Assembly: GCA_964291235.2 (NCBI GenBank)
Contig: OZ219816.1
Location: 1,696,001 to 1,760,000, forward strand
DNA: 64,000 bases
Direction: 5' to 3'
Source: Vicinamibacteria bacterium
GTDB taxonomy: Bacteria > Acidobacteriota > Vicinamibacteria > Marinacidobacterales > Marinacidobacteraceae
Below are positions 37,193 through 64,000 of the stretch, piece after piece. Each line of letters begins with the position of its first letter. Positions within the stretch are counted from its first letter, which is position 1. A program made the translations under genes and the position numbers. The notes under the pieces were generated by a model that saw nothing but the letters and a program-made list of their open reading frames with translations, was not told the origin of the DNA and ran no database searches.

Positions 37193-38305
37193 TCAGACGG
37201 CTCCGGACAGCACCAGGAACACGTAGCCCTTCGCCTGCCGGAGTTGGTTGCCGGAAATGACCAGCTTGATGTGGTGAATGCCGCGTAGCAGCACGTAGCG
37301 GCCGGACTTCGCAAAGAGGGTTGTCGGTTTCGAAACCCAGTCGGCCAGCGCTGTCAGCTTCTCCGAGACTACGAGATCCTCATGGCTCAGGGCTTTCAGG
37401 AACGGTTCCCAATCGGTGAGGCCGTCGAGCCAATAGCGTGAACTCTTGGTGTATCGCTGCTTGACGATGAGCGTCAGGCCGAGTGTCGGACCGACGCCCT
37501 CTTCCTGCAAGTCAATGTTCACCCCGGTTCGGACCACGTTCGCGCGTTCCTCGAAGCGCTGAATCACCGCTTCGACGGCCGCGAGCTGGCCTGGCCAGCC
37601 CGTGCTTTCGAGGTACGACCCTACTTCCCGCTGCGATTGGAAGCCCATGACCGCCAAGCGGATCGCCCGTGAGCGGGACGGGAATACGCCGAACGAGTCC
37701 ATGCGAGTGTCTTCCGGCTGCGCCAGGTAAACGCGTTCGACGTTCGCCCGTTCGGCGTCACGCAGCTCCCAGCCGACGCCGGAGACGAGCGCGCCAACCA
37801 CGGTAACGGCGTCGTGTCCCTGACCGCGGGCGCCCATTATGGGTCGTTCGCCGGGCCGCAGGAATATTCCTGGAAGCGAGCCCTGACCGTCCCGAGCGGA
37901 GCCGATGTCATGTTCCAGCATCAGCTTGCGGCCCACGATCGCACGCAGGGGGGAGTCTTCCGCATCCATCCGGCGGAACAATCGCCCGATCACTCTTGCG
38001 GTCTCATCGGCAGGATCGGTCCGTTCGCGCTCCCGGAAAAACGCCGCCGTCCTGGTTCCGCTCGCGAGGGAGACGCCGAGATCCGCTCTTGGCTCCGGCG
38101 CATGCAGCGGCAGCTCGAAGCCGAACGGCAAGGCGCCCATCGTGATCGGAAGTTCCCGGGCGCGCTCGAGCACGAGGCCCCATTCCGGATCGCCGATAAG
38201 AACCGGCGAGATCCTGTTTCGGAAATGCCCGAGCAGTTCGCACATGGTGCCGCCTTCCTCGGCGAGACGATCCTCGGTGAGGGTGACTGCCTGGTCAAGT
38301 TTCAT
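37193..38305 (-). CDS. Conserved hypothetical RiPP-associated protein (possible ABBA prenyltransferase-like fold), cluster 1
   Basis: Last gene of the YcaO operon; shares PFGFELPL, ADLG.SL, GRK..LE.D, PG.FL, R.LAV.GF, RGIHHIK, K.YVF with 55865-57001. Confidence 0.8.
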   Translation of the reverse strand: MKLDQAVTLTEDRLAEEGGTMCELLGHFRNRISPVLIGDPEWGLVLERARELPITMGALPFGFELPLHAPEPRADLGVSLASGTRTAAFFRERERTDPADETARVIGRLFRRMDAEDSPLRAIVGRKLMLEHDIGSARDGQGSLPGIFLRPGERPIMGARGQGHDAVTVVGALVSGVGWELRDAERANVERVYLAQPEDTRMDSFGVFPSRSRAIRLAVMGFQSQREVGSYLESTGWPGQLAAVEAVIQRFEERANVVRTGVNIDLQEEGVGPTLGLTLIVKQRYTKSSRYWLDGLTDWEPFLKALSHEDLVVSEKLTALADWVSKPTTLFAKSGRYVLLRGIHHIKLVISGNQLRQAKGYVFLVLSGAV

Positions 38306-38314
38306 GTTGCGTCC

Positions 38315-40657
38315 TCACGCGATCACGGGTGCGGGATTCAGATCGGCTTCGGCGAGAGGGTGGTTGCGATGGCCCATCCTGACGGGCACGTCGTAGAGAC
38401 GGCCGGGGGCGAATCGTGCCCAGAAGTGCCGCATTCCGGGCACGATGACCCGCGCCACGGGCATACCGATGTCGGGCCGGGTCTGATCCAGCACCAGCAA
38501 CTCCATGCCCTTCGCTTCGACGAGCGCACGGCAGTTCTCCACATCGTCGCGCGTGTCTGCCGTTTCGATCGCCGCATACCGCGAAGCCTTGCACTGCGGT
38601 GCGTCAGCCGGCGCCAGCCAGGAACAATCGGCGAGACGAGCGGTTTTCCACCACCAAAGCGCCAGTGGGTCATCAATCGCGGGCCGGCCGTCTCTGCTCC
38701 CCGGCCGTGGCAGCCAGGTAAGGCATTGGTTCAGTTCGCACATCGCCCGCAGCGCCGCGATGCGCGGGTCGGCGTGGGCGCCGGCGCCGTAGATGATGTC
38801 CTCGGTCTGGCCCTCCGGCCTGCGCGAGAGCGCGACGAAGGTGGGAATGCCTATATCGGAGGTGACGTCGAGCATCCACACGTCCCGCTCGTAGCGGGCG
38901 TAGTGCTCTGGGGCCGATGCGAGGTAATCGTCGTCGAAGGTGGCGAGATCGACCGCCGGGGCCCGCAGCCGGTTGTACCACCAGATTGCGAACGCATCGC
39001 GCTCTACCAGTTCATAAAAGCCCTGCAGGACGGCTTCTTCCAGGGTATTGCCGGCAGCGCAGCCGTTCGAATCGGCGATCAGGTCCGCAGGGCCGCGCCG
39101 TTCGGCGGGCATGCTGTAGAGCATGGACGTCGGCAGATAGCGATGCCGCTGCTGCGTCAGCGACCACGCCGGTGTCCAGTCGATTTCGGCGTCGGGATCG
39201 AGACGCTGCGGGACGATGTTGTACGGATGACCCTTCGCGTTGATGCTTGCGGCATTGTCGAACTGATGGTCGCTGAACAATTGCGCGTCGTTGGGATGGA
39301 TGGCCTCGCCGCCCGCGAACTCCCTGAACCGCCTCCGCAGGCGGATCTCATCTCCACTGCACGCGCCCGAATGGCGTTCGACCGCTTCGCAGAGCGCGCT
39401 GACCCTGGATTGCTCCCGAGTGGCGCCCTTGCCGGCGCTCTTGCTCCGGAGGCTGCGCCGGAGCGAACTCAGGGTTCGGCTTCTCACGCCGAGATTGCTG
39501 CCGGCCCAATAGACGTGCAGCCACGAATCGTTCTCATCGGTGGTGCGCGACAGCCAGGTCACGACCCCACTGATCGGGCTCACCAGGTGGCGGTATTTCG
39601 CCAGCGTGACTTCCGGCGACACGGTGCGTGCGCCGCCGCTGTTGCGGTGAGCCTTGGGACTCGCTTTGAGAGACAGCGGCACCGGAAGCCGGTCCGGCCG
39701 ATGGAGCGCTTCGTCGCCACAGGCCGGGCACTGCGGCCGGCGCACTACGGGGTGTTGCGAACTCGTGAAGGTGCCGACGTTCATGGCAATCGCGTGTTCG
39801 TGAATCGGGGCCGCGTCCTCCAGCACGAGCCACTTGACGATTTCGGCCGCGATCAGCCGGTAGAGCGCCTCCAGAACCGCGGGCTGGGCCGCGAACGGCT
39901 TGAAGGCCGCCTGGTCGCCGGCAATGTTGCGCAGAAAACCGTGGACCTCCTGATGGCTTCCCAGCCGGTACGCCAGACAGTCCCAGCAGGGTCCTTGTTC
40001 GCCCGCGTGAAAGACGGGGCCGAACAGCGCCTCCATGCCACGCGGCCGCACCAGCGTCCACGCCGCTTTCGCCTCGAGCTGGCGCCGATTCACTGCTGCA
40101 AGGTGCGTCTCGAGGTAGTCCTCGCAAACGATGACGGTGAGCGTGGGATCGGTAGTCCCCACGACGGCGCCGCCCTCCTCGAGATGCCGAATGAACTGGC
40201 TCTCGTCACCGTTGACCGCGATGCGCGATTCCGCCAGCCGCCTTTCGACCCAGCGCGGGGATGCGCCGAGCGACGACCAATAGGCGGCCCGGCGGCGGTC
40301 CATGCCGTGATCGGCAGAAACGACATAACCCTTGGCCGAAAGCGACCCAAGGGCCGAGAAGACCTCGGAGGCGGCATGGACGCCCTCCACGGCGGCGACG
40401 ATCGCATCCAGCGGGTGCTGACCATCGAGGAGCGGTAGCAGGTTGCAATACAGCTTGCCGTGCAGCAGGGTGTTGAAGGTTTCGGAAACCAGCAGCGTCT
40501 GCTGGTCGCCAATCTGGTGAAACCGGAGGTGCGGTGCGAGAGCAGGAAGCTTGACCAGTCCCCGGTCCGCGGAGGTTCTTCGCGGCAGGATTCCGGGCCG
40601 GGAATTCGTGTCCGTATGCCTTGCCAGCGGGGACTTCCGCGCCGAATCAGCCGGCAT
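38315..40657 (-). CDS. Fused E1-like/YcaO cyclodehydratase (TOMM C-D), cluster 1, SrpC-like
   Basis: GPCWDCL, RRPQCPACG, LVSPISGVV, SAGKG, ALCEAVER, DSNGCAAGNTLEEA, ELVERDA, ARVIVPGMRHF, C-terminal LNPAPVIA; start ATG 40657. Confidence 0.95.
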   Translation of the reverse strand: MPADSARKSPLARHTDTNSRPGILPRRTSADRGLVKLPALAPHLRFHQIGDQQTLLVSETFNTLLHGKLYCNLLPLLDGQHPLDAIVAAVEGVHAASEVFSALGSLSAKGYVVSADHGMDRRRAAYWSSLGASPRWVERRLAESRIAVNGDESQFIRHLEEGGAVVGTTDPTLTVIVCEDYLETHLAAVNRRQLEAKAAWTLVRPRGMEALFGPVFHAGEQGPCWDCLAYRLGSHQEVHGFLRNIAGDQAAFKPFAAQPAVLEALYRLIAAEIVKWLVLEDAAPIHEHAIAMNVGTFTSSQHPVVRRPQCPACGDEALHRPDRLPVPLSLKASPKAHRNSGGARTVSPEVTLAKYRHLVSPISGVVTWLSRTTDENDSWLHVYWAGSNLGVRSRTLSSLRRSLRSKSAGKGATREQSRVSALCEAVERHSGACSGDEIRLRRRFREFAGGEAIHPNDAQLFSDHQFDNAASINAKGHPYNIVPQRLDPDAEIDWTPAWSLTQQRHRYLPTSMLYSMPAERRGPADLIADSNGCAAGNTLEEAVLQGFYELVERDAFAIWWYNRLRAPAVDLATFDDDYLASAPEHYARYERDVWMLDVTSDIGIPTFVALSRRPEGQTEDIIYGAGAHADPRIAALRAMCELNQCLTWLPRPGSRDGRPAIDDPLALWWWKTARLADCSWLAPADAPQCKASRYAAIETADTRDDVENCRALVEAKGMELLVLDQTRPDIGMPVARVIVPGMRHFWARFAPGRLYDVPVRMGHRNHPLAEADLNPAPVIA

Positions 40658-40659
40658 TC

Positions 40660-41970
40660 TCAGGCGGTCAGGACTCCGACAAGGCGCTCCAGAGCTTCCA
40701 CACAAAACGCGGAGGTCACGGCTTCGGAGCCGTGTCCGATCTGCCCGACGGCGCCCCATTTCAGCGTCTGGTCGCCGAACGCCAGAAACTCCGGCCAACT
40801 GCCGTCCTCGCGTTGTGAACTCAGGAGCCGCTCCACCTGGCGTTTCACGCCAATGCTCTTGAGGCTTCCGACGCCATCGAGCGCCGACACTGCCTGGGCG
40901 GTCTGAAGGATGTTGCCGAATTCCCCGTTCTCGTCGCGCAACGCCAGAATGCGGTCCGCGAGTATCGGCCGTAGTCGAGCCAGAGCAGGCCGCGCGCGAA
41001 CCATGGCGCGGACGGTCGCATAGTAGATCGCGACCGTGTCGGGATACCACTTGGATGAGCCCTCGACCTTGCCTTCGGTGATCAGAGCCTCCAGCCACCT
41101 TTGGGCGTCCCTGGTTTCGGGGCAGGCGCCAAGATAGGCGATGACATTCGCATTGACTACGGGATCCGCTTCTATCCGGAACGGCGAAACGACATCGGGT
41201 TCGTCCTCGGCCAGGACCCAGGTCAGGAAACGGCCCCGCTCATCGCGATTCGCCAGCAGTGCCGGAATGTTCCTCCCCAAGAGGATCCAGGGATGCGTCC
41301 CCAAGACCTGTGAGCAGAGGGTGGTGCTGTCGAGATCCTGGGGAAGGTGGCGGTAATACCGCCACAAACCGGGATACTCGATGGTGTTCGTAAGGTGCGC
41401 CCTGGTAGCGTCGCACATGGCCCTGGCCCGCGCTTCGTGGCAACTCTCCAGAGCCAGTACGCAAAGAGCCGAAATGAACGGCGGCCTTTCGAAGTGCCGT
41501 GGAATGTTGGGGTCGGCGACGTTGAACCGGATGCAGTGCCAAGCGCCATTTTCGTCGAGGGTGGATTCCAGAAACGCGAGACCGCGGCGGATGCTCTTCC
41601 GAGCCGATCGGGCGAGGGTTGCGGAAGTGGCGCCGCTCTTCCCGGCGCGCGGGCGCTCGGGGGTCGGCGGTCGAAGGGGCGGTGCGGGGTCGTAGAGCGT
41701 CTTCTTGAGAAACGCGAGTGATGCGGCGCCGGTCCGCGCCTCCTTTCGTTCGGACTGGCTGAGTGTGGCACGCGGCGGAAGCACCAGGTGGGTCGTGGAA
41801 TAGGTCTCTTCGTGCACGTGAATCTGGTGGCCTTCGGCCAGCTTCACGCCGAGTTCCTCTTCGATCGTGGCTTTGGGTTTCGCGAGCAGGCGTTCGCGAA
41901 AGTCGTTGTCCTCGCCGGCTCGCGATACGAGGGAGTCGGCGACGGCATTGAGTCCCTTCCTTGATGTCAC
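40660..41970 (-). CDS. NHLP leader-like domain fused to a prenyltransferase/squalene-cyclase-repeat (class II terpene cyclase-like) domain
   Basis: N-term RAGEDNDFRERLLAKPKATIEEELGV...IHVHEE...HLVLPP (NHLP); C-term RRGLAFL..DENGAW, LWRYY...PQDLDSTT, DPVVNANV, QREDGSWP, GSEAVTSAFCVEAL. Confidence 0.82.
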   Translation of the reverse strand: MTSRKGLNAVADSLVSRAGEDNDFRERLLAKPKATIEEELGVKLAEGHQIHVHEETYSTTHLVLPPRATLSQSERKEARTGAASLAFLKKTLYDPAPPLRPPTPERPRAGKSGATSATLARSARKSIRRGLAFLESTLDENGAWHCIRFNVADPNIPRHFERPPFISALCVLALESCHEARARAMCDATRAHLTNTIEYPGLWRYYRHLPQDLDSTTLCSQVLGTHPWILLGRNIPALLANRDERGRFLTWVLAEDEPDVVSPFRIEADPVVNANVIAYLGACPETRDAQRWLEALITEGKVEGSSKWYPDTVAIYYATVRAMVRARPALARLRPILADRILALRDENGEFGNILQTAQAVSALDGVGSLKSIGVKRQVERLLSSQREDGSWPEFLAFGDQTLKWGAVGQIGHGSEAVTSAFCVEALERLVGVLTA

Positions 41971-44906
41971 GCGATCTGCCTCCTGATCAATTCCTTGAAC
42001 ACGCCGTCGGTTTCCATGAGTTCGCTGAAGGATCCGCTCTGTACCACTTTGCCGGCCTGCAGGACATAGATGCGGTCCGCCTGTTCCAGCGTGGACAGGC
42101 GGTGGGCGATGACGAGGCGGGTGGAGGTCAGGGCGGCGAGGTTCTTCATTACCCTGGCCTGGTTTTCGTTGTCCAGCCAGTTGGTTGCCTCATCGAACAG
42201 CATGATCCGCGGACTGCCGATCACCGAGCGGGCGATCGTCACCCGCTGACTTTCGCCGCCCGACAGGACAGCCCCGCTGGTCCCCACCATGGTCATCAGG
42301 CCCATGGGCATTCCCTTGATTTCGCTTTCGACCTCGGCGGTGCGGACGGCCGTCCAGACCTCCTTGCTCGTCACTCCGTCGTGGTGGCTGACCAGGTTGT
42401 CCCACAGATCCAGGGGATGAAGCCGGACGGACTGCGGCACCGCGCCGACCTGCCGGCGCACCTGCTTCAGGTTCAAGTGCCTCAGGTCGCGCCCGTCGTA
42501 GTACACGGCGCCGGCACTCGGCCGGTCGACTCCGAGTGCGAGCCGGAACAGGGTGCTCTTGCCAGCGCCGGACTCCCCGGCGATCGCCACGAATTCGCCA
42601 GGACGGGCGCGAAGGGTGACATCGTCCAGAATCAAAGGGCCGTCGGGGTCGTAACGGAAGGAAACACGGTCGAAGAGAAGCTCGCCGCCCAGCGAGTCGA
42701 CCGGTTCTCCTTCGAGTTCGGTCTCGGGAACCGCGGCGAGCAGGGGGCGCATCTGATCGAACGCCGGGACCATGGAGGCAACGGCGCCGAAGGACTCGCC
42801 GAGCCGGGCGACTGCGGACTGGAAGGCGATGAAGACGGTGTAAACGACGAGAAAATCGCCAACCGGAACGTTCCGGTCGCCCACTGCCACGGCCAGGAGC
42901 AGTACCCCACCGGCAAGAAAGGGAAGTGCGGCGCCGAAGGCCCGCGAGTGCCCCTCGAGTGCGCCCAGTTCGAGTTCCGCGCGTTTCTGCTCGCGATAGT
43001 CCCGCGCCCAGATGGCGAAAGCCGATCCTTCGGCGTTTTCCACCCGCAGCTTGGTGATTCCGCCCACGATCTGGAACAGCCGGCCGGCTACGCGACGGGC
43101 CGCGCCGATCATCTGCCCATGAGGGGATACCTGGCGTAAACCGAGCGCCACGGTGATCAGGACCGAAGCCAGGCTGAAGATCAGGGCGACGGTCCCAAGG
43201 CCGGTGTCATAGAAGAAGATGACGGCCAACACCGGAAGCAGGAAAACGACCGACAGCAGGCTGTCGGCGACGACTCCCTGCAAGCCGTCGCGAAGACTCT
43301 GGAACGTCATTCCCGACATGGCCAGATCGCCGGCCGGACGGCGGCGGAGAACGCTGGGCGGAAGCCGCATGAGGCGGTCCCAGAAGGCGGCTTCGACCCG
43401 CGACGCCGAGCGTCCCTCGAGCCGCATCATCGCGGTGCTCTGCAGCAGGTGCAACAGTGCGCCGAGCAGGCCGAACGCGGCCACCGTCACGGCCACGGCA
43501 TAAAGCGCTGAGGTGCTTCCGCCGTCCGTCAGGTGGTGGGCAACGAATCCGAGCGCGAGGGCCGGCACCAGCTTGACCAGGCCGCCCGGAAGCCCGGCAA
43601 CCACCAGCCGCGCCAGGTCCGGGCCCGATCCATGGAGGGCCGTTCCGAGGAGCTCTGCCGGTTTCACGCTGCCGGGCGGCAAGGGCCGATAGAACATCCA
43701 GGCTTCCTCGCCCAGCGTGCGGGCGCGATCCGGCGTGATCCGGACACCGCGCTTGCTGACCGGGTCCACCTCCCGGTAGCGCCCGAAGATTCCCGGCAGG
43801 AGCGCTACGGGCCGGCCGTCCTCCGCGCGGAATGCCAGCAGCGCGTTGCTGTCGCCGTGCCACCAGTCGCCCTCGGCCTTGAACCGCACCCGCCGGGCGC
43901 GTACGCCGGACGCATCGAGCACGTCAACCAGGCCGACTCGAGCATCAGATGCACCCGAACGCGCCGGAATCCTGAAATCGATTCCTTCACGGCGGCCGAT
44001 GATCCGGAGGGCGTCCGCCAGAGCCGCGTCATCGACTCTCGCACCTCGATCGGTCGGAAGGTCGTAGATATTGAAGAGCCGCTGCCGCGCCGCCTTTGCG
44101 GCCCGGCGGCGGCTGGTGGTCCGTGCGCGTTCGAGATTGGCATCGTCAACCGTGGCGAGTCGGCGGTTGTGGCGCTCGAGGGCGAACGCGGCCGTGTGGA
44201 AGGAGGCGAGCGCCCGCGGCAGCATGCCGCGTTCCGCCAGGGTCTTTGTTGATTCGCCGGAAAGGGTGACCTTGTCGAACAGGCTGAGCCAGCTCGTTCG
44301 CGTCAGCGGTACCGGAGTCCGACTGGCGCCGCTCGTCCCGGCGAGTTCCGCCGGGTCCACGATCCCCATGAACAGGCTTGCGCCGCGCGGCGGTTCGGAT
44401 ACCCAGACCACCCCGCGCCGCACGGACAGCGTACAAGGGGCCAGGGTCTGGGTGACACCGGGTTCGGCCAGGGCGGTTGCACGCGGAAGGCGGCTTGCAA
44501 AACGCGAAAGCGTGTCCGTTATGGCGGTCAACCAGGTATCCGTCTGTTCCCCCAGTTCCGACGGATCGACCTCTGACAGCAATGACGCCGACAGGCGCTT
44601 CAGAATGGTGCCGGGCAATCCCTTGGCAATCAGGCTGAGCGTCGCGCCTTCGTCGCTCTCCCGTTCGTCCGGTGCGACACCCGGAAGCAGACAGCCCGAT
44701 TCGCGCCGCAACAGGTGCTGCGGCGCCGCTCGTTCCACCCGGTCCTTGAGTTCGACCAGAAACAGATTGACCGAACCCCGATCAATGAACCAGACAGTGT
44801 CTGGGTCATCGAGTTCCACCGGCAGGTTGCCGGCGCAGGGCACAGACGTCCCGGAGCGGGCCGCGAGTTCGGCCAACGATGTGTATCGCGGTCTCGTGTC
44901 GTGCAT
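41967..44906 (-). CDS. NHLP-type bacteriocin export ABC transporter permease/ATPase
   Basis: cNMP-like N-terminus, ASGVRARRV...WWHGDSNALLAF, AFWDRLMRLP, GESGAGKST, LSGGESQR, DEATN, IAHRLST; start ATG 44906 (TGATG overlap). Confidence 0.93.
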   Translation of the reverse strand: MHDTRPRYTSLAELAARSGTSVPCAGNLPVELDDPDTVWFIDRGSVNLFLVELKDRVERAAPQHLLRRESGCLLPGVAPDERESDEGATLSLIAKGLPGTILKRLSASLLSEVDPSELGEQTDTWLTAITDTLSRFASRLPRATALAEPGVTQTLAPCTLSVRRGVVWVSEPPRGASLFMGIVDPAELAGTSGASRTPVPLTRTSWLSLFDKVTLSGESTKTLAERGMLPRALASFHTAAFALERHNRRLATVDDANLERARTTSRRRAAKAARQRLFNIYDLPTDRGARVDDAALADALRIIGRREGIDFRIPARSGASDARVGLVDVLDASGVRARRVRFKAEGDWWHGDSNALLAFRAEDGRPVALLPGIFGRYREVDPVSKRGVRITPDRARTLGEEAWMFYRPLPPGSVKPAELLGTALHGSGPDLARLVVAGLPGGLVKLVPALALGFVAHHLTDGGSTSALYAVAVTVAAFGLLGALLHLLQSTAMMRLEGRSASRVEAAFWDRLMRLPPSVLRRRPAGDLAMSGMTFQSLRDGLQGVVADSLLSVVFLLPVLAVIFFYDTGLGTVALIFSLASVLITVALGLRQVSPHGQMIGAARRVAGRLFQIVGGITKLRVENAEGSAFAIWARDYREQKRAELELGALEGHSRAFGAALPFLAGGVLLLAVAVGDRNVPVGDFLVVYTVFIAFQSAVARLGESFGAVASMVPAFDQMRPLLAAVPETELEGEPVDSLGGELLFDRVSFRYDPDGPLILDDVTLRARPGEFVAIAGESGAGKSTLFRLALGVDRPSAGAVYYDGRDLRHLNLKQVRRQVGAVPQSVRLHPLDLWDNLVSHHDGVTSKEVWTAVRTAEVESEIKGMPMGLMTMVGTSGAVLSGGESQRVTIARSVIGSPRIMLFDEATNWLDNENQARVMKNLAALTSTRLVIAHRLSTLEQADRIYVLQAGKVVQSGSFSELMETDGVFKELIRRQIA

Positions 44907-47116: not shown

Positions 47117-47117
47117 C

Positions 47118-47660: not shown

Positions 47661-47700
47661 GACCGTGCATTGCCTCCGTTGAAGTGTTCCAGGACCGGCA

Positions 47701-48975: not shown

Positions 48976-49121
48976 CCTATGTGACTTCCACAGATACCGG
49001 CCGATTATCCCTACTCCCAGGCTGGAACCCGCTCTTCCCGCGGGTCGCGGCGGCCGGGGGAGCCAGGCAACGCCCAGTCCGTCTGCCTCTCCATCCCTCC
49101 GCTTCCGATAGCGAATGCTGT

Positions 49122-57001: not shown

Positions 57002-57019
57002 GAATTCGACCCCAACAGC

Positions 57020-59356
57020 CTAGGCAATCACGGGGGCCGGGTTGAGTTCGGATTCGGAGAGCGGGCTCGGGAGCCGCCCCATCGCGACCGGCACATCGAA
57101 CAGCCGGCCGGGCGCGAAACGTTCCCAGAAGTGCCGCATTCCCGGCACGATCACCCTTGCCACCGGCATTCCGATGTCGGGGCGGGTCTGGTCGAGGACC
57201 AGGAACTCCATCCCGCGGGTCTCCACCAGCGCCCGGCAGCGCTCGACGTCTTCGCGCACGTCCGTCGTGTCCGGGACGGGATAGTCGTCCCTGCCGCAGA
57301 GAGACGATTCCGGCGCCGGCGCCAGGTAGGGGTTTTCTTCCACCGTGGCCTCCTCCCACCAGCGAAGCGACATCGGATCCATGAGGTCGCGCCCAGCGCC
57401 GCCCCCCTCCACCGCCTGGATCCAGCTCAGGCACTGGTTCAACTCACACACCGCGCGGAGCACCGCCACCTGCGGATCGGGATGCGCCCCCGCACCGTAG
57501 AGGATGGTTTCCGCGTCCCCGCCGGTGCGCCGCGAAACCGCGACGAAGACCGGAATTCCCAGGTCGCTCGTAACGTCAAGCACCCACATTTCGCGTCCCC
57601 GCCGCCGGTAATAGTCGGGCGCGGAAACCAGGTACTCGTCGTCGAAGCTCCCCAGGTCCACGCCGGGCGCCGGGAGCCGGTTGTACCACCAGATCGCGAA
57701 GGCGTCGCGTTCGACCAGCTCCAGGAACCCCTGCAGGATGGCCTCCTCCAGGGTGTTCCCGGCGGCGCAGCCATTGGAATCGGCGACGGGTTCCCAAGCC
57801 TCGCGTTCCTCGGACGGCAGGCCGTACAACATGGACGTCGGCAGGTACCGGTGGCGGCTCTGGGTGAGCGACCACACCGGCGACCAGCTCGCTTCCCGCT
57901 CCGGATCGAAGCGGGGCGGGATCACGTTGTAGGGATGGCCCTGGGCGTTGATCCGATCTCGCTCGTCCAACTGCCGGTCGCTGAAGAGTTGGACGTCGTT
58001 CGGGTGGATCGCCTCGCCGCCGCCCGCCCGTTCGAAGTCGCGGTAACACTTCCGGACCCGGATCTCGTCCCCGTGGAACGCGCCCGAATACCGTTCGAGC
58101 GCTTCACAAAGCGCGCTCGCCTCGGACTGCGCGCGCGTCTCGCCCTTGCCCGCGCTCTTGCTGCGCAGGCTGCGGGTCAGCGAACTCAGCGTTTTCGTGC
58201 GGAGGGCCTGATTGCTGCCGGCCCAGTACACGTGAAGCCACGGGTCCGCTTCCTCCGACGTGCGTTTGACCCAGGTCACGACCCCGCTGACCGGGCTCAC
58301 CAGGTGACGGTAGCGGGCGAGGGTCGCCTCCGGGGCGACACCGCGCACCCCGCCGCTGTTGCGAATCCGCTTCGGGCTGGAAGCGAGCCGGACCGGGACG
58401 GCCGGCCGGTCGGTGCGATAGAGCGCCTCATCGCCGCAGGCAGCGCACTGGGGCCGGCGCCTGACCGGGTGACGCTCATTCTTCAAATGGGTGAGGTCCA
58501 GAGAAAACGCGTACTCGTGGAGCGGCGCCAGCTCCCCGAACACCAGCCACTTGGCTATTTCCGCCGCGGCGAAGCCCAGGACCGAATCCCGGACTCCGGG
58601 TTCCGCTGCGGCCGGGTGGAAGACGGAGTCCGCGTTGCGATTGCGCAGGAAATTGTGGACTTCCTGGTGCCCGCGCAGGCGGTGGGCGAGACAGCGCCAA
58701 CAGGGTCCCTGATCCGCCGGCCGGAAAATCGGCCCGAACAGCGGAGACATTCCGCGGGGGCGGAGCAGCATCCACGGAGTTCCCGACTCGAGCTGCCGCC
58801 GATTGAGGTCGGCGTGCTGCTCATCAAGATAGTCGGCGCAGACGACCACCGTAAGAACAACGCCGGCGGTGCCTGACGGGACGCCCATCCGCTCCAGGCG
58901 CCTCGCGAGTCCGCCTTCGTCACCGTGCACCCGGACCCCGGCGGCGCCGAGTCGCTGCTCCGCCCACCGGGGGGAGGCTCCCAGTGAGGACCAGTAGGCG
59001 GCGCGCTCCCGGGCCATGGCGTGTTCGCCCGAAACCACGTATCCCCTGGAGGCAAGCGCGACGAGCGCCTCGAAGACGTCGGAAGCCGCATGGACGCCGG
59101 CGAGCGCGGCGGCCAGTTCCTCACGCGAGCGGCGTCCGTCGAGCAACGGCAGGAGGTCGGCGTAGAGGGCGCCCCCGAGCAAGGTGTTGAAGGTTTCGGA
59201 AACCAGCAGCAGCTGTCCGCCCCCAACGGGACGGAACTCCAGGTGGGGCGCCAGCGCCGGCCTGTCCACGACGCCGGCGTCGGCAGCGGTGATCCTCTTC
59301 AGGATGCCGCGGCCCGGATTCGCCCGTGGGGCACCCTCCCGGTCCCAGTCCGACAT
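57020..59356 (-). CDS. Fused E1-like/YcaO cyclodehydratase, cluster 2
   Basis: Same motifs as 38315-40657 (GPCWRCL, RRPQCAACG, SAGKG, DSNGCAAG, ELVERDA, LNPAPVIA); start ATG 59356. Confidence 0.95.
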   Translation of the reverse strand: MSDWDREGAPRANPGRGILKRITAADAGVVDRPALAPHLEFRPVGGGQLLLVSETFNTLLGGALYADLLPLLDGRRSREELAAALAGVHAASDVFEALVALASRGYVVSGEHAMARERAAYWSSLGASPRWAEQRLGAAGVRVHGDEGGLARRLERMGVPSGTAGVVLTVVVCADYLDEQHADLNRRQLESGTPWMLLRPRGMSPLFGPIFRPADQGPCWRCLAHRLRGHQEVHNFLRNRNADSVFHPAAAEPGVRDSVLGFAAAEIAKWLVFGELAPLHEYAFSLDLTHLKNERHPVRRRPQCAACGDEALYRTDRPAVPVRLASSPKRIRNSGGVRGVAPEATLARYRHLVSPVSGVVTWVKRTSEEADPWLHVYWAGSNQALRTKTLSSLTRSLRSKSAGKGETRAQSEASALCEALERYSGAFHGDEIRVRKCYRDFERAGGGEAIHPNDVQLFSDRQLDERDRINAQGHPYNVIPPRFDPEREASWSPVWSLTQSRHRYLPTSMLYGLPSEEREAWEPVADSNGCAAGNTLEEAILQGFLELVERDAFAIWWYNRLPAPGVDLGSFDDEYLVSAPDYYRRRGREMWVLDVTSDLGIPVFVAVSRRTGGDAETILYGAGAHPDPQVAVLRAVCELNQCLSWIQAVEGGGAGRDLMDPMSLRWWEEATVEENPYLAPAPESSLCGRDDYPVPDTTDVREDVERCRALVETRGMEFLVLDQTRPDIGMPVARVIVPGMRHFWERFAPGRLFDVPVAMGRLPSPLSESELNPAPVIA

Positions 59357-59378
59357 CCGAACGGCCTCCGGGTTGCGG

Positions 59379-60257
59379 TCAGCCGTCTTCCGGCTTCTTC
59401 GCACAGTAGCGCCGAAGCTCGAAGAAGCCCTTGGACCACACTTCGTGAAGCAGGCGCATGCGCTGGATCAGCCGGCCCAGCTCCGGGGTGTTCACGCCGG
59501 ACAGCCAGTACAGCGAGAGTTGCCGGTGCCGGTGCCCGATGAGCCGGATGTTCTCCGCATCCTTGCCGCCAAACCCCTCGAACTCGACCAGTTCGAAGCC
59601 GGCCCCGGCCAGCAGGCGGGTGTAGGTGGACTGGCGCTCAAGCGGAGACACCATCCACGGCTCGCAGAGCGGCAGGATGTGCTGCTCGTACTCCTCGCCG
59701 CTCAAATCGTCGCGAGCCATCCAGTCCATGGCCGCGATCCGGCCTCCCGGGGAGAGGATCCGGAACACCTCGCGAAGAAACGTTCCCCGGTCGCCGTAGT
59801 GGCAGGCGCTTTCGATATTCACTACGGCATCAATGGAGCCGTCGTCGAACGGAAGGTGTTCCGAGCAGTCGGCGTATCCAAAGCGCACCCGGTCTTCCAC
59901 GCCGGCATCCGCCGCCTTGCGGTTGGCGATCTCGAGTTGCTTCCGGTTCACGTTGACACCGGTAACGGCGCAGCCGTGTTTGTTCGCCAGGTAGATCGCG
60001 GTGCCCCCGACTCCACAGCCGGCGTCCACGACATGGTGGTCGGCTCCGATCCCGGCGGGGGCGGCAATCACATCCACCATCCGTTCCACCGCCCGCTGCA
60101 AACCGGCGGACTCGGCCAGCCGGTTCAGGTCCTCGGGAACGTCCTCCGGCTCGAAGAGCCCGAGATGAATGTGGTCGGGATTCCAGCTCGCGGCGTAACC
60201 CGCGGTGAGTTCGTCGTAGTGGAGCTCGACGAGGCGTGAGTGTTCCGAGAGCGCCAA
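59379..60257 (-). CDS. Class I SAM methyltransferase (sterol/tocopherol-MT-like), cluster 2
   Basis: HIHLGLF, VDAGCGVGGT, VTGVNV, LPFDDGSIDAVVNIESACHY, RILSPGG. Confidence 0.9.
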   Translation of the reverse strand: MALSEHSRLVELHYDELTAGYAASWNPDHIHLGLFEPEDVPEDLNRLAESAGLQRAVERMVDVIAAPAGIGADHHVVDAGCGVGGTAIYLANKHGCAVTGVNVNRKQLEIANRKAADAGVEDRVRFGYADCSEHLPFDDGSIDAVVNIESACHYGDRGTFLREVFRILSPGGRIAAMDWMARDDLSGEEYEQHILPLCEPWMVSPLERQSTYTRLLAGAGFELVEFEGFGGKDAENIRLIGHRHRQLSLYWLSGVNTPELGRLIQRMRLLHEVWSKGFFELRRYCAKKPEDG

Positions 60258-60328
60258 CTACCGGACTCCTCGTTTCCGGGCGGGGCGGCTGCGCGGCAAC
60301 GGGTCCGACCACTCCGGGGCGCGCACGA

Positions 60329-62821
60329 TTACGCGTGGCGATCCGTAGCAGCCGCCGCCCGGCTCCGTGACGCTTCACCAAGAGGGAAGGGTCCCGGCGC
60401 GGTCATGCCCTCGATCCCCCCGATGTCAGCCGCCACTCGCGCCGCCGTTTCACCAATGTGCCCGGTCAGCGCTTCGAAGTCCTTCGCCCCGCCGGCTTCC
60501 GCGACGACGGACCTGACCTCGGGCCTGACCTCGGGACGGGCCGATTCGGCCCCGAAGCCCTCGTCCGCGACCAGACGCAGGATGCCGCGCAGGTTGCGCA
60601 ACTGCGTCGCCGCTTCGGCCAGGCGCCCCGCGGCGGCCTCCGCGATCAGCCCGCGGGCGCCCGCGGCTTCGAAGACGGCCCCCGCGTCGAGGGACAGGAC
60701 CTCCGGCATTTTCCCGGCGCACTTCAGTTGCAGGAAGCGGGCGGCGCGCTCGACGTCGTGAAGACCGCCCGGCATGGCGTCGAGGGACGCCAGACCCGGT
60801 TCCGCCGCGCCATATGCGGCATGCGCCAACTGTGACATCAGGGTGTTGCGCGCGGGGCTGCGGGCCGCGATGTCCCGCCGCGCCGCTTCAAACCGCGCCG
60901 CAAGATCCGACCCGTCCGACTGGAAGACGCAGCGAGCGCGTATCAGTTCCAGGAGTTCGCCTTCCGGGCCGACATCCCGGTGGTAATCGAGGAAATCGGC
61001 GAACGACCTCACGGAGTGCGGCGTGGCTCCACGCGGAACCGGGGCGATCAGCAGGTTGTCGCGGGAGAGGCTGCGCAGCACTTTCCGGAAGCGGCGGCAG
61101 AGAGAGTCGTAGTACTCCGGAGGCCCGCCCTCGTACAGGAAAAGGAGGTCCAGTTCCGAGCCCAGGATCCTCTCCCGGCCGGCCACGTCTCCGAACGCGA
61201 CCACACAGATCCCGCTCCCGGGATCCGGAGAACTACTTTCCGCAAAGTCCTCGCAGACGGCGGACAACACGGCCGAGATCGACGCTTCGGCCACCCGGGA
61301 GGCCACCGCCCCCGCCTCGCTCGGGGTCAGGTTGCCGCGCATGGTGTGCACGCCGACCTGGAACGCCTTCGTGTTCGACCACTCGCGCGCCAGTCCCACC
61401 GCTTCCCCGGCGTTCTGAGCGGGGGTTTCCGCGATCTGTTCCTTCATCTCCTCCGCACCGAGTTCGCGCGTCCAGTAGAGGCGCACGAGTCCGCGGCGGG
61501 CGATCCTTTCGAATTCGGGATCAGGCCCGAACCCGCCCGGCAGGTCCAGATCGGTGAACTCCCTGGTGTCGAGGCTGTCCAGCAACTCCGGCGTCCGGTT
61601 TATCCAGGCGGCGAGCGGGGGCGAACCGCCGAGGATTTCCTGGATGGCGTCGAAGGCTGCCGGGCGGGCGGCGAACGCGTCGCTGTCGTACGCGCGCCAG
61701 TCCTTGACCTCGGGGTAGAAGTAGGCCCGCTGCTGATCCAGCAGGGGATCCATGAGCTTGAACCAGCGGCTCGGGAAGAGCGCCAGGTTGTTCATCTGCG
61801 AGTACCGGGCCGGTAGTTGCGGCGACTCTTCTCCGCCGTAGTGCTGCAGCACCGGGTAGCGCCGGTTGGACGCCGCATGGTGGTCGGCGTGCCGCTGCAT
61901 GTTGTAGTAGAGCCAGTTGGTGAACTTGTAGTCAGCGCTCCAGGCGTGCCGCGGGAGGACGCGCTCGAAGCGGCCGCTCGGCATCCGGATGCGCCTCAAT
62001 CCGTAGTGCTGGACGTAGTTGCTGACCTTCATCGAGAAGACCACGCTGAAGCACAAGACCGCGTAGATGAGAACGGCCCACGGCCCACCCAGAACGAAAA
62101 CCAGCGCATACCAGGCGCCGGTTTCCAGCACGTAGAGCCAGAAGGGATTGGAGTAGTGCCAGACCGGCAATCGGCTGCGCGCCAGTCGCTTTTTCTCGAA
62201 ACGCCAGGCCCCGGTCAGGTTACTCGCGATCTCCCGGGGCAGATACCGCCAAAAGCTCGTGCCCTTGGGGGCCGACCCGGGGTCCGCCGGAGTGCAGACC
62301 AGCGGATGATGGATGTAAACGTGCTCCGTCGCGTAGTGCGGATAGGACGCGGACGCCAGCACGAATTCCCCGAGCCGACGCTCCCACGTGGCGCGCCGGT
62401 GGACCAATTCGTGACCGACCACGAAAACCGTCTGGCCCACAAGGACCAGCACGAACGCCATCACCCCAATTTCCCATCCGGCGAGATGTCCGGACACCAG
62501 CATCTGCCAGAGTGAGAAGACGAAGGTCAGCGGCCAGATCATGGCCCACAGCCAGGCGGACAGCTTGTACACGAACAGGCGGCTCTCCGGAGTCCGGTCC
62601 GGGTCCATGTTCCGCTCCTGCTTGCCGAGCACCTGGTCGAACTGGTCGGCGATCGTGAGAAACAGGAAGGGACCCGCGAGCCACCAGCCGCCGTTCATCC
62701 CGGCAGCGATTACCAGCGGAAACACCAGCAGGGGCGCGAAATAGGGGAAGGCGTTCCCGAGGGAGGGTTCCACCCAGGCTGCACCGGCAGCCGCAACGGT
62801 GTTCGAACCTCCCGACGCCAT
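60329..62821 (-). CDS. AlkB-like membrane diiron monooxygenase/desaturase fused to a GlnE-like nucleotidyltransferase domain
   Basis: His boxes HELVH, EHVYIHH, NYVQHYG, MQRHADHHA; C-term VVAFGDVAGRERILGSELDLLFLY, LIRARCV, PGGLHDVE..ARFLQL resemble GlnE. Confidence 0.85.
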   Translation of the reverse strand: MASGGSNTVAAAGAAWVEPSLGNAFPYFAPLLVFPLVIAAGMNGGWWLAGPFLFLTIADQFDQVLGKQERNMDPDRTPESRLFVYKLSAWLWAMIWPLTFVFSLWQMLVSGHLAGWEIGVMAFVLVLVGQTVFVVGHELVHRRATWERRLGEFVLASASYPHYATEHVYIHHPLVCTPADPGSAPKGTSFWRYLPREIASNLTGAWRFEKKRLARSRLPVWHYSNPFWLYVLETGAWYALVFVLGGPWAVLIYAVLCFSVVFSMKVSNYVQHYGLRRIRMPSGRFERVLPRHAWSADYKFTNWLYYNMQRHADHHAASNRRYPVLQHYGGEESPQLPARYSQMNNLALFPSRWFKLMDPLLDQQRAYFYPEVKDWRAYDSDAFAARPAAFDAIQEILGGSPPLAAWINRTPELLDSLDTREFTDLDLPGGFGPDPEFERIARRGLVRLYWTRELGAEEMKEQIAETPAQNAGEAVGLAREWSNTKAFQVGVHTMRGNLTPSEAGAVASRVAEASISAVLSAVCEDFAESSSPDPGSGICVVAFGDVAGRERILGSELDLLFLYEGGPPEYYDSLCRRFRKVLRSLSRDNLLIAPVPRGATPHSVRSFADFLDYHRDVGPEGELLELIRARCVFQSDGSDLAARFEAARRDIAARSPARNTLMSQLAHAAYGAAEPGLASLDAMPGGLHDVERAARFLQLKCAGKMPEVLSLDAGAVFEAAGARGLIAEAAAGRLAEAATQLRNLRGILRLVADEGFGAESARPEVRPEVRSVVAEAGGAKDFEALTGHIGETAARVAADIGGIEGMTAPGPFPLGEASRSRAAAATDRHA

Positions 62822-62888
62822 CGTTACCTCCTTAAGGTCGCCTGATTCGGATCAGTCTGATCGTAGCACTTCGCCGGCCGCCGAACTT

Positions 62889-64000
62889 TCACGCCAACTG
62901 CCGGCGAACCAGGTCCTGGAACGGCCCCTCGGTTGCCACGAGGACCGCATAGGACCCCTCCTGAACGACCTTCCCGGCGCGCATCACGTAGATGCGGTCC
63001 GCTTCGCGGAGGGTGGACAGCCGGTGGGCGATGACGATCCGCGTCGAGGTGAGACGCGCGAGGTTGTCCATGACCGTCGCCTGCGAGTCGTTGTCGAGCC
63101 AGTTGGTTGCTTCGTCGAGAAGGAGGATTCGCGGATTGCCGATCAGCGCGTGCGCGATCGTGATGCGCTGGCTTTCGCCGCCGGAGGTGACGCTCCCGCC
63201 GGCCCCGACGGGGGTCAGCATCCCCATGGGCATCGCCGCGATCTCGCGGTCCACCGCCGCGATCCGGGCGGCCCGCCAGGCATCCTCGGCGGTGGCTTCT
63301 TCGTGGTCTCCCGCGATGTTGTCCCAAAGGTCCTGCGGATGGAGTTGGACCTGCTGGGGAACGGTGCCGAGCTTCCGGCGCACCTGCTTGACGTTGAGAT
63401 GCCGGAGATCGCGTCCGTCGTAGTACACCGCTCCCGACGACGGCTGGTCCAGGCCGAGCGCCAGGCGAAAGAGCGTGCTCTTGCCGGCGCCGGACTCGCC
63501 GGCGATCGCCACGAACTCGCCGGCGCGAGCGCGAATGGATACATCGTCCAGAATCGCCGGGCCGTCCTCGTCGTAACGGAAACTCACGTGGTCGAACGCG
63601 ATCTCGCCGCCCAGAACTTCTACGGCTTCCCCACCCGCGCTCATCTCCGGGGGCTCGGCCAGGAACGGCTCGACACGCTGGAGCGCCGGCAAGATGCCGG
63701 CAAGCGCGCTGAATGATGTCCCGAGACGCACTACCGACATCTGGAACAGCAGGAGCAGGGTGTAAACGACGAGAAAATCTCCCACCGCGATCGGCCCGCG
63801 GTCCGGGAGAGTCGCGCCGAGCAGGAGGAGCGCCGCCGCGAGCAGCGGCAGCGCGGCGCAGAACGCCTTCAGATGGGCCTCGAGGGAGCCGAGTTCCAGT
63901 TCGGCCTTCTTCTGGTCCCGGTAGTCGCGAGCCCACATCGCGAACGCCGACCCCTCGGCGCCGTCCACCCGCAGCTTCGAGATGCCTCCCACCAGTTGGA
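62889..64000 (-). CDS. NHLP-type export ABC transporter permease/ATPase, 3' part (runs off window end)
   Basis: Paralog of 41967-44906: GISKLRV.GAEGSAF, GESGAGKST, SGGESQR, DEATN, IAHRLST. Confidence 0.92.
   Translation of the reverse strand, partial: QLVGGISKLRVDGAEGSAFAMWARDYRDQKKAELELGSLEAHLKAFCAALPLLAAALLLLGATLPDRGPIAVGDFLVVYTLLLLFQMSVVRLGTSFSALAGILPALQRVEPFLAEPPEMSAGGEAVEVLGGEIAFDHVSFRYDEDGPAILDDVSIRARAGEFVAIAGESGAGKSTLFRLALGLDQPSSGAVYYDGRDLRHLNVKQVRRKLGTVPQQVQLHPQDLWDNIAGDHEEATAEDAWRAARIAAVDREIAAMPMGMLTPVGAGGSVTSGGESQRITIAHALIGNPRILLLDEATNWLDNDSQATVMDNLARLTSTRIVIAHRLSTLREADRIYVMRAGKVVQEGSYAVLVATEGPFQDLVRRQLA

Follow-up and report, generated by a model that had tools for sequence, protein, structure and literature searches.

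We analysed a stretch of 64,000 nucleotides from the genome of a Vicinamibacteria bacterium (G000:C2:1696001-1760000; the genome comprises 3.45 Mb in 2 contigs). This whole stretch is called the window below. It has a G+C content of ~68%, and its genes were called by third-position G+C plus domain searches. Positions 37193-64000 contain two modules of like build, with nearly all genes on the minus strand. The stretch is an srp island, that is, two neighbouring clusters of the known and widespread srp family of sponge symbionts. The srp products are sponge-derived proteusins, members of the RiPPs (peptides that are synthesized ribosomally and modified post-translationally); the core LCCCW of the precursor SrpE receives three thiazolines from the YcaO protein SrpC, and its C-terminal Trp is brominated in a leader-dependent manner by SrpI, in which Lys84 is catalytic (PMC10858898, PMC10286304, PMC12615548). 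We think it probable that the locus combines an imported, canonical srp cluster (cluster 1) with a halogenase-free sister cluster (cluster 2) that surrounds a resident gene for an AlkB-GlnE fusion protein, and that the peptides would receive isoprenoid tailoring.

Cluster 1 spans 37193-49877. Its precursor (precursor 1; 49626-49877, minus strand, 83 amino acids) has an NHLP leader and ends ...EEQLEAISAGLCCCW. Precursor 2 (55442-55714, plus strand, 90 amino acids) also has an NHLP leader and ends ...EKQLDQIAAGLCCCGI. Thus, the C-terminus is AISAG followed by the core LCCCW in precursor 1, and IAAG followed by LCCCGI in precursor 2. With TIGR03793 (leader_NHLP; cut-off 50.9 bits) the precursors score 63.4 and 66.9 bits respectively, which bears out an earlier sequence-only reading of this DNA that had described two NHLP precursors with these cores after AG. 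The L(X)4L leader motif of srp precursors, (L/I)TEEQL, is represented by ITEEQL in precursor 1 and by LSEKQL in precursor 2. The core of precursor 2 lacks the terminal Trp that characterizes srp.

The YcaO cyclodehydratase of cluster 1 (YcaO1; 38315-40657, minus strand, 780 amino acids) carries a fused N-terminal leader-binding part of the winged helix-turn-helix/E1-like type and ends ...NPAPVIA. An alternative start of YcaO1 at the open reading frame start 41098 was replaced by the ATG at 40657, given the alignment with YcaO2 and the position of this ATG directly after the upstream stop. YcaO2 (57020-59404, minus strand, 794 amino acids) belongs to cluster 2. YcaO1 and YcaO2 score 326.8 and 330.7 bits with Pfam YcaO, 280.5 and 267.2 bits with TIGR03604 (both above the cut-off of 219.25 bits), and 140.6 and 138.2 bits with TIGR03882. 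Both have the fused leader-binding domain that is typical of srp. Cluster 1 also encodes a flavin-dependent, SrpI-like Trp halogenase (47701-48975, minus strand, 424 amino acids), as an srp cluster should; cluster 2 does not. This protein scores 153.2 bits with Trp_halogenase, matches Trp halogenases of known structure at E values of 3e-27 or weaker, and carries a GRGTAG motif, a WIFVIP motif and Lys84.

Two export genes lie in cluster 1. The first encodes an NHLP-type ABC exporter with permease and ATPase (41967-44906, minus strand, ~979 amino acids from ATG 44906) that matches Pfam ABC_membrane and ABC_tran and reaches 665.6 bits with TIGR03797 (NHLM_micro_ABC2; cut-off 709.4). The second encodes a C39 peptidase-ABC exporter (44906-47116, minus strand, ~736 amino acids from ATG 47116), with 116.4 bits for Peptidase_C39 and 847 bits for TIGR03796 (NHLM_micro_ABC1), just under the cut-off of 853.3. 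In cluster 2, the 3' part of an ABC exporter gene is found at 62889-64000 (minus strand; ABC_tran 103 bits) and the gene continues to the window-equivalent position 65813. The next 20 kb past 64000 (L003) supplied the rest of cluster 2, which the sequence-only reading had expected beyond the window: the remainder of this ABC gene (974 amino acids; L003:889-3813, 674.6 bits with TIGR03797, cut-off 709.4), a C39-ABC gene (740 amino acids; L003:3825-6047, 864.6 bits with TIGR03796, over the cut-off of 853.3) and an HlyD gene (295 amino acids; L003:6210-7097, 81.9 bits, cut-off 156.2). Judged by these scores, which lie near the curated cut-offs, the exporters appear to be the classical NHLP bacteriocin export set TIGR03796/03797/03794. 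Between the halogenase and C39-ABC genes of cluster 1 there is a 197-amino-acid open reading frame (47118-47711, minus strand) with a chance-level HlyD_3 match (E 0.09). In related loci of the cluster 1 type, this position matches HlyD weakly and in part, and the frame may be an adaptor gene that is short or has diverged.

Cluster 1 is the canonical, published srp system. It shares with srp the core LCCCW after AG, the NHLP leader, the YcaO, the Lys84 halogenase and the transporters, and it fits every point that was tested. The sequence-only reading had recognized srp in the combination of LCCCW with a flavin brominase, and the ITEEQL motif, the YcaO and Lys84 agree with that identification (PMC10858898, PMC10286304, bioRxiv 10.1101/2023.06.09.544420). 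In four sponges, 191 near-identical ITEEQL precursors were the most transcribed RiPP genes, 116 of them with YcaO genes and 66 with halogenases (bioRxiv 10.1101/2023.06.09.544420). Published srp clusters contain two transporters and a number of genes whose function is unknown (PMC11832590). The locus differs from these systems by the second, halogenase-free LCCCGI cluster nearby and by the recent import of cluster 1, which is discussed below.

Cluster 2 consists of precursor 2 and an operon that runs from 55865 to past 64000; precursor 2, on the plus strand, converges on this minus-strand operon. The gap between precursor 1 and the start of cluster 2 is ~5.5 kb, and a methyltransferase, an FAD-linked oxidase, an amidohydrolase and a GT4 glycosyltransferase are encoded between the modules. 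The two modules share an ABC exporter, a YcaO and a protein of ~370 amino acids, as had been noted from the sequence, and the identities of these paralogues range from 38% to 61%. YcaO1 and YcaO2 are 61% identical, the 370-amino-acid protein of cluster 1 and its 378-amino-acid counterpart in cluster 2 are 38% identical (E 2e-75), the precursors are 45% identical, and the two methyltransferases MT1 and MT2 are 36% identical over 196 residues. A search of the G000 genome found no further srp-type YcaO or precursor. All features listed in the sequence-only reading are present in their places.

The left border of cluster 1 is at ~37190. Upstream of it are two Sortilin/BNR proteins, GAPDH, PGK and similar housekeeping genes; the Sortilin-Vps10/BNR repeat proteins are two paralogues of ~1090 amino acids (29391-32672 and 33586-36825, plus strand) just outside the cluster. 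On the far side, distal to the HlyD gene of cluster 2, there are genes for a CDP-alcohol phosphatidyltransferase and a TonB-dependent receptor on the other strand.

Core type and gene content across genomes

The AlkB-GlnE protein of cluster 2 has 225 relatives (one genome per species). We mapped the window proteins by tblastn onto the best 80 of these 225 loci and counted as neighbours the genes within ~12 kb of a precursor. The best 80 relatives come from metagenome-assembled genomes (MAGs) of Acidobacteriota, Gemmatimonadota, Alpha- and Gammaproteobacteria, Nitrospirales and Chloroflexota, several of them with sponge-derived names. At least one gene for a YcaO, the 370-amino-acid protein (which we call PT-like, for its likeness to prenyltransferases), the cyclase-like protein of cluster 1 or a precursor was found in the flank at 65 of the 80 loci. 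Complete precursors could be read in 38 cases: 21 had the core LCCCW and 17 had other cores (11 LCCCG, 2 LCCCGL, 2 LCCCGV, 1 LSCCV and 1 LTCCGC).

Gene content differed with core type. The cyclase gene was near 20 of the 21 LCCCW precursors and near none of the 17 others, and a halogenase gene was near 5/21 and 0/17 respectively. Conversely, a methyltransferase gene was near 0/21 LCCCW precursors and 6/17 others, and the corresponding figures for the FAD oxidase were 0/21 and 3/17. The PT-like gene accompanied both classes, with 12/21 LCCCW precursors and 17/17 others. Nine LCCCW loci seemingly lacked it, but in all five of the genomes tested the gene sits 1-4 kb past the end of the flank. Thus, its absence from the nine loci is at least partly an effect of flank length. 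Relatives of the cluster 2 PT-like protein, at 42-55% identity, adjoin the non-Trp cores in 17/17 loci.

The 17 non-Trp cores with YcaO2/PT2-type genes occur in other phyla, and hundreds of homologues from various phyla match the proteins of cluster 1 at ~75-80% identity. Cluster 2 is a sister architecture, recurrent and free of a halogenase. The locus had been read from its sequence as an unusual supercluster of special tailoring genes; this view has to be given up, as cluster 1 is a standard srp cluster that matches the published architecture and cluster 2 represents a second architecture that recurs without a halogenase. Methyltransferase genes are found in all four LCCCGL and LCCCGV loci and the oxidase gene in three of them, which links the MT1/oxidase pair of the window to the LCCCGI cluster. 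By co-occurrence, MT1 and the FAD oxidase (50493-52690) very probably belong to cluster 2 and the LCCCG-X type. The sequence-only reading had noted this pair in between the two clusters; by the counts (0/21 LCCCW loci) it is not a middle module common to both.

We also searched 201 genomes of the window's class, counting as srp-type any YcaO with at least 63% identity. The AlkB-GlnE C-domain was found in 15 genomes and srp-type YcaO in 14; 12 genomes had both and 2 had the YcaO alone. The three genomes with AlkB-GlnE and no srp-type YcaO comprise a fragmented assembly, a split hit and a copy with an in-frame TGA. The genes in G126 (C1:1959857-1960683) and G156 (C11:5586-6866), which are split or contain the in-frame TGA, may be decaying after cluster loss. 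The PT-like gene was present in 14/14 genomes with srp-type YcaO, directly adjoining it wherever coordinates were compared. Five of five orphan AlkB-GlnE loci had an srp-type YcaO elsewhere in the same genome. In terms of whole genomes, AlkB-GlnE goes together with srp clusters. The sequence-only reading had proposed co-occurrence of the extra enzymes with NHLP/YcaO genes elsewhere as a test, and such co-occurrence was found in many genomes. Two srp-type YcaO genes were found only in G000 (1/14 genomes).

Origin of the twin arrangement

In the Vicinamibacteria relatives L004-L010, L032 and L036, the genes follow one common order: CDP-alcohol transferase, AlkB-GlnE, GT4, amidohydrolase. In the window, AlkB-GlnE has inserted genes of cluster 2 on either side, and MT1 and the oxidase follow the amidohydrolase. 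The amidohydrolase (52728-54140, minus strand; Amidohydro_1 61.6 bits) has a signal-peptide-like N-terminus. The GT4 glycosyltransferase (54219-55274, plus strand, 351 amino acids) matches NCBIfam GT4 families at E 1e-19, below their cut-offs, and its gene is kept beside AlkB-GlnE in L004-L010 and L032. Both are probably resident genes outside the pathway; we rejected them as tailoring genes because they are syntenic in relatives without adjacent srp genes.

We compared the window by blastn with L010, a locus of another MAG. The region 37131-43953, which contains the PT-like, YcaO1, cyclase and ABC genes, is 98.5% identical to L010 in DNA and inverted relative to the precursor. For the resident genes, the DNA identity to L010 is 79.4% (AlkB-GlnE) and 78.8% (GT4 plus amidohydrolase). 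In addition, the window contains a relic of a second amidohydrolase (49953-50315, minus strand, 120 amino acids) directly upstream of precursor 1, which repeats the tail of the gene at 52728. Positions 50143-50296 of this relic are 96.8% identical in DNA to the L010 amidohydrolase (L010:14576-14729), whereas the full-length gene of the window is 78.8% identical to it. Cluster 1 at 98.5% identity against flanks at ~79%, together with the 96.8% relic, argues for a recent import. To judge from these identities, cluster 1 is a recent lateral acquisition from an L010-like genome that brought along the end of the donor's amidohydrolase gene, and the relic marks the edge of the imported block. Tandem duplication was rejected as the origin of the twin state: identity between the paralogues reaches only 38-61%, as against 98.5% between cluster 1 and a foreign MAG. 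The notion that the twin state is a dedicated two-core design likewise gives way to the recent lateral acquisition of cluster 1.

Two overlapping small open reading frames at 49206-49572 (plus strand), between precursor 1 and the halogenase gene, were considered as a remnant of a PIN/toxin-antitoxin system, an idea that was dropped when Pfam gave no family for them. Similarity to L010 stops within this region, at 49486, which is the junction of the inversion or insertion.

The high identity of cluster 1 to another MAG could also have a technical cause, namely a chimeric assembly in which cluster 1 of an L010-like strain was misjoined at shared amidohydrolase or precursor sequence. Short-read contigs from runs X1 and X4 cover the whole stretch with exact matches (30/30 bins). 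Between 49487 and 50551 these contigs are interrupted; loose ends occur at 50096/50106 and there is no bridging piece among those listed, so the inter-cluster junction rests on the assembly alone; the summed depth at 47.6-50.4 kb, at 2-4 times that of its neighbours, also fits a misjoining. On the other hand, the genome is assembled in only 2 contigs, and exact-match contigs of both clusters occur at like depth in two samples (cluster 1: 29-42 in X1 and 34-47 in X4; cluster 2: 30-33 in X1 and 31-46 in X4). The truncated 120-amino-acid relic comes after MT1, and no known parent arrangement yields that by simple misjoining. The gene order of cluster 1 also differs from that of L010 by an inversion. 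We regard a chimera as very improbable and keep to a recent import. The raised depth, which extends over 47601-50400 with several loose ends, is found where many organisms in the X1 and X4 samples have near-identical halogenase-precursor sequence in common.

Candidate tailoring enzymes

The PT-like proteins are encoded at 37193-38305 (minus strand, 370 amino acids, cluster 1) and at 55865-57001 (minus strand, 378 amino acids, cluster 2). Protein 1 on its own had no Pfam or NCBIfam match. Of its 992 homologues, the best 120 share 74-99% identity with it and none of these has a Pfam domain; their named sources are MAGs of Acidobacteria and Gammaproteobacteria. A profile search of 1.8 billion representatives gave 929 relatives. 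An AF2 model of protein 1 consists of repeated units of helix and strand pair (pTM 0.79). All of its listed Foldseek matches in the PDB are ABBA aromatic prenyltransferases (E ~1e-5, prob 1.00), including 6-DMATS, CdpNPT, DMATS1, FunA, CloQ, FamD1, AmbP, NphB/Orf2, TleC and FgaPT2. Independently, the ESM atlas pointed from protein 1 to Trp_DMAT and PTase_Orf2 clusters at 0.88-0.90. Predicted strands carry near-invariant residues in i/i+2 pairs (E131/D133, H345/K347 and K359/Y361), as a barrel-lining active site would give. The conserved basic and aromatic strand residues R211, R216, H345, K347, K359 and Y361 would be compatible with binding of a prenyl diphosphate, although they prove nothing. 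These results suggest a putative PT-barrel (aromatic prenyltransferase) fold for the 370-amino-acid protein. By sequence, it does not belong to the PTase_Orf2, Trp_DMAT or cyanobactin prenyltransferase families, and, as there is no sequence-level link to prenyltransferases, we class it as alike in fold and not as a family member.

PT-like paralogues at 28-32% identity also occur away from any srp YcaO, in G027, G129 and G034, with up to four copies per genome, which indicates that the fold family is wider than srp. A search for fused, longer forms found none, which is weak evidence. One locus with the core LTCCGC (L081, RKRZ01000017.1) has three tandem PT-like genes, 35-42% identical to those of the window, beside YcaO and AlkB-GlnE genes.

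The second candidate, encoded at 40660-41970 (minus strand, 436 amino acids), joins an NHLP-leader-like domain to a domain like class II cyclases. The whole protein scores 46.8 bits with TIGR03793, below the cut-off of 50.9, and gives hints of Pfam NHase_alpha and SQHop_cyclase_C. In profile searches, the N-terminal ~75 residues matched nitrile hydratase alpha as well as 8tb1, an NHLP leader of known structure; this domain has no core and no true L(X)4L motif. The profile of the C-terminal 329 residues matches the squalene-hopene-cyclase-like protein 8paj at E 1.2e-5, and the invariant DLDST at residue 212 aligns with DADST of 8paj, so that the acidic DxD motif of such cyclases is present. MstE uses a DxD motif (PMC12414744). 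The best Foldseek matches, obtained with a weak AF2 model (pLDDT 57.9), are MstE, 8pak/8paj and, from drimenol and drimenyl-diphosphate synthases, their class II domains. This suggests that the C-domain is an MstE-like class II terpene cyclase. It resembles MstE and 8paj/8pak in size (~330 amino acids), in repeated DGSW-type motifs and in DLDST/DADST; it differs in its N-terminal NHLP-like domain and its RiPP setting, and the identity in the Foldseek alignments is only 16-19%. A LanC-like function for the toroid domain was rejected, since all structural and profile matches are terpene cyclases or prenyltransferase beta subunits. The protein has 1097 homologues, of which the best 120 (73-95% identity) come from MAGs of Deltaproteobacteria, Nitrospira, Nitrospinae, Gemmatimonadota and Acidobacteriota.

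There is a precedent for such a pair of enzymes. NctPC, which consists of an ABBA prenyltransferase and an MstE-like cyclase, places a geranylgeranyl group on Trp and then cyclizes it, and ChrPC is analogous (PMC13290415). The window likewise has a predicted ABBA-fold protein and an MstE-like cyclase, the latter only with Trp-ending cores. One of the NctPC/ChrPC systems is reportedly a cyanobacterial proteusin (said to be the work of Hubrich et al. in Chem, 2024). NctPC and ChrPC are fusions, whereas the window has separate genes in which the putative cyclase bears an NHLP-leader-like domain where the fusions have a prenyltransferase domain; and the putative prenyltransferases here, unlike those of NctPC and ChrPC, have no sequence similarity to known prenyltransferases. 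We tentatively propose, as a possibility that falls short of even chances, that srp peptides are peptide-isoprenoid hybrids and not simply brominated pentapeptides with thiazolines: the PT-barrel family would prenylate all cores, the docked cyclase would act on Trp cores, and the AlkB-nucleotidyltransferase would oxidize and perhaps activate the lipid. In this form, the predicted folds suggest that the final srp products carry lipid or terpene groups.

Several observations weigh against our main reading of the locus. When 52 members of the 370-amino-acid family were compared with Pfam, 0/52 matched any prenyltransferase family at E<=0.01 (there was one chance-level match to Cu-oxidase_4), and a profile of the 52 sequences found no solved chain in the PDB at E<=1. 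The model of protein 1 was built from 7 sequences and has a pLDDT of 76, and its TM scores reach only 0.39-0.56. In the cyclase model, residues 196-267, which hold DLDST, lie below a pLDDT of 50, the mean being 57.9, and Pfam SQHop_cyclase_C scores 24.4 bits, under its cut-off of 26.1. The Pfam-scanned cluster genes include no isoprenoid-supply gene and no azoline dehydrogenase. The site of prenylation is unclear, because a leader that is cut only at export leaves no free N-terminus in the cell. The neighbour counts given above come from loci picked through AlkB-GlnE itself, in related genomes, and are not independent. Finally, YcaO and halogenase sufficed in published srp reconstitutions, for which the available text describes cyclodehydration and bromination only (PMC10286304, PMC10858898).

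These two reports, the low confidence of the cyclase model and the lack of a sequence-level link between the 370-amino-acid family and prenyltransferase families would all suit a different explanation, in which the PT-like and cyclase-like proteins are scaffolds or chaperones, confer immunity, handle the leader or carry out unrelated chemistry, and the products are plain (bromo)tris-thiazol(in)e peptides. A binding role is also suggested by the NHLP-like domain of the cyclase-like protein. We consider this explanation unlikely, as every listed Foldseek match of the 370-amino-acid model is an aromatic prenyltransferase, near-invariant i/i+2 residue pairs lie on its predicted strands, and the invariant DLDST is matched in alignment by DADST in a small class II cyclase of known structure. 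Furthermore, the strict pairing of the cyclase with Trp cores mirrors the Trp-directed prenyltransferase-cyclase systems (PMC13290415).

The third candidate is a fusion of an AlkB-type membrane di-iron oxygenase with a GlnE-type nucleotidyltransferase (60329-62821, minus strand, 830 amino acids). It scores 87.4 bits with Pfam FA_desaturase and 52.5 bits with GlnE (cut-off 24). Residues 47-363 match the alkane 1-monooxygenase 8f6t at E 4e-55, and all four His-box motifs that we searched for are present (HELVH, EHVYIHH, NYVQHYG and QRHADHH), as in AlkB (8f6t, 8sbb). Residues 456-750 match GlnE (3k7d at E 1e-9; the domain is shared with 3k7d and 1v4a); only one of the two halves of GlnE is present, and its motif reads ...GSELD (G-x-ELD), with Glu for the first Asp of G-S-x(n)-D-x-D. 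Unlike AlkB and GlnE proper, the two parts are fused in one protein, which is associated with RiPP clusters and not with alkane use or control of glutamine synthetase. G000, with its two srp clusters, has a single AlkB-GlnE gene.

Some of the relatives are shorter. Thirteen of them (L059, L061, L066, L068-L071, L073, L074, L076, L082, L083 and L053) match only the first ~645-690 residues, 78-83% of the query, and look as if they lack the C-terminal part of the GlnE region; they are mostly from Gemmatimonadota, with three labelled Gammaproteobacteria, and occur with both core types. One Candidatus Palauibacter genome (NZ_CBDBZT010000003.1; L019 and L020) has two AlkB-GlnE copies 1.7 Mb apart, one of them beside NHLP-type exporters with an adjoining YcaO fragment that holds a TAG.

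AlkB-GlnE may not act on the peptides at all. Its divergence equals that of the resident flanking genes, so that it looks vertically inherited in the genus, and in some genomes it is separated from the srp cluster by >100 kb; from these two points it could accompany the clusters without being a tailoring enzyme. No rubredoxin was seen among the Pfam-scanned cluster genes, and the genome was not searched for one. Related Vicinamibacteria keep the order CDP-alcohol phosphatidyltransferase, AlkB-GlnE, GT4, amidohydrolase with or without nearby srp genes, 15/80 AlkB-GlnE loci have no srp gene inside the flank, and in G001 and G002 the srp YcaO is ~0.5 Mb away. Thus, AlkB-GlnE might be a resident gene of lipid metabolism outside the pathway, beside which srp clusters land or persist, for example by recombination through shared flanks; the amidohydrolase relic is evidence that flank-mediated recombination happens at this locus. 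We nevertheless judge this to be rather improbable. An srp-type YcaO occurs in 12/15 genomes with AlkB-GlnE versus 2/186 without it, and two of the three AlkB-GlnE-only genomes have a split or stop-containing copy. In loci of Alpha- and Gammaproteobacteria and Nitrospirales, AlkB-GlnE lies directly upstream of YcaO in the same direction, and in minimal LCCCG clusters it is among only three non-transport enzymes.

The remaining candidates go, by co-occurrence, with the LCCCG-X type. MT1 (50493-51362, minus strand, 289 amino acids) and MT2 (59379-60257, minus strand, 292 amino acids) are class I S-adenosylmethionine-dependent methyltransferases with Methyltransf_11 scores of 82 and 75 bits. The best NCBIfam matches of MT1, all below cut-off, are sarcosine/dimethylglycine N-methyltransferase, fatty-acid O-methyltransferase and geranyl diphosphate 2-C-methyltransferase. 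The solved proteins nearest to MT2 are MitM (E 1e-31), 3bus and sugar O-methyltransferases, with prenyl-diphosphate C-methyltransferases lower down. The FAD-linked oxidase (51359-52690, minus strand, 443 amino acids) is similar to cytokinin dehydrogenases and contains both of their domains, FAD_binding_4 (99.6 bits) and Cytokin-bind (29.9 bits, cut-off 23). It matches cytokinin dehydrogenase structures at E 2e-41, in an alignment that covers the FAD domain only (residues 18-225), and EncM is next.

A model for the maturation of srp peptides

Based on these observations, we propose a model for both core types. By analogy with published work on the family, the YcaO would make three thiazolines from the core Cys residues with the NHLP leader attached. 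The PT-barrel protein may then prenylate the peptide in all core types, a step suggested by predicted folds and co-occurrence. The PT-like gene accompanies all core types, so the target of its product is probably something that all cores share. In the LCCCW branch, the halogenase would brominate the C-terminal Trp in a leader-dependent manner, as described for the family, and the class II cyclase may cyclize the polyprenyl chain on the Trp-ending peptide only, as NctPC and ChrPC do. The leader-like domain of the cyclase would dock it to the leader-binding machinery. In the LCCCG-X type, the two methyltransferases and the cytokinin-oxidase-like flavoenzyme would replace the branch of bromination and cyclization. 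Finally, the C39 domain of the exporter would cut after AG and export a product of 5 or 6 residues, as is known for this family.

Our best guess for AlkB-GlnE is that it oxidizes a lipid-like (prenyl) part at the membrane. We also considered, as a mere idea, that it desaturates thiazoline to thiazole, since no McbC-type dehydrogenase is present. Cytokinin dehydrogenases oxidize N-isopentenyl amines. The likeness of the FAD oxidase to these enzymes is suggestive of a link to a prenylated amine, which is unproven.

Linear cyanobactins of the aeruginosamide type are short YcaO-made thiazol(in)e peptides that are then prenylated and methylated (AgeMTPT). This analogy, which the sequence-only reading had drawn, would fit cluster 2, which has a PT-like protein and two methyltransferases. 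The cyanobactins differ in their PatA/PatG proteases and in their prenyltransferase family, whereas the system described here has an NHLP leader and would use C39-ABC export. The sequence-only reading had proposed prenyl or terpenoid, methyl and oxidative modifications. At the level of folds, the PT-barrel and the MstE-like cyclase speak for the prenyl and terpenoid chemistry, while the modifications of the peptide itself remain inferred. It had also suggested that the two clusters share enzymes. This is plausible in view of the single AlkB-GlnE and of the position of the methyltransferase/FAD oxidase pair outside both core operons; the pair itself, however, goes with the LCCCG-X type.

The srp family, the diversity of LCCC cores and the maturation of a proteusin by prenyltransferase and cyclase (the 2024 precedent) are already known. 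The literature that we searched contained no structure of a final srp product and, in a search that excluded the primary srp paper and all supplements, no fold assignments for the srp proteins of unknown function and no account of LCCCG-type clusters. These fold assignments, with the strict rules that associate them with core types, may be new. The same may apply to the genome-level tie of AlkB-GlnE to srp, to the cyclase that bears a leader-like domain, and to the documented recent transfer that has yielded a rare two-cluster genome.

By published accounts, no other RiPPs of sponge microbiomes are as widespread or as highly transcribed as the srp peptides. In sponges, srp clusters are distributed over many bacterial phyla, and the precursor genes rank with the most transcribed ones of the symbionts; their ecological role has been called elusive (bioRxiv 10.1101/2023.06.09.544420). 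The present locus records at base-pair resolution how srp clusters move between symbionts. If our model is correct, natural srp products would be lipidated and would have been overlooked by searches for the simple peptide, which would change what to look for in sponge metabolomes. The model would also provide concrete pairs of enzyme and substrate for testing, and tethering of a cyclase to a leader-like domain would represent a novel mode of recruitment for RiPP tailoring enzymes. The locus would then be a natural experiment, in which Trp and non-Trp cores stand side by side with one common AlkB-GlnE, and the cytokinin-oxidase-like enzyme with the two methyltransferases would form its alternative branch.

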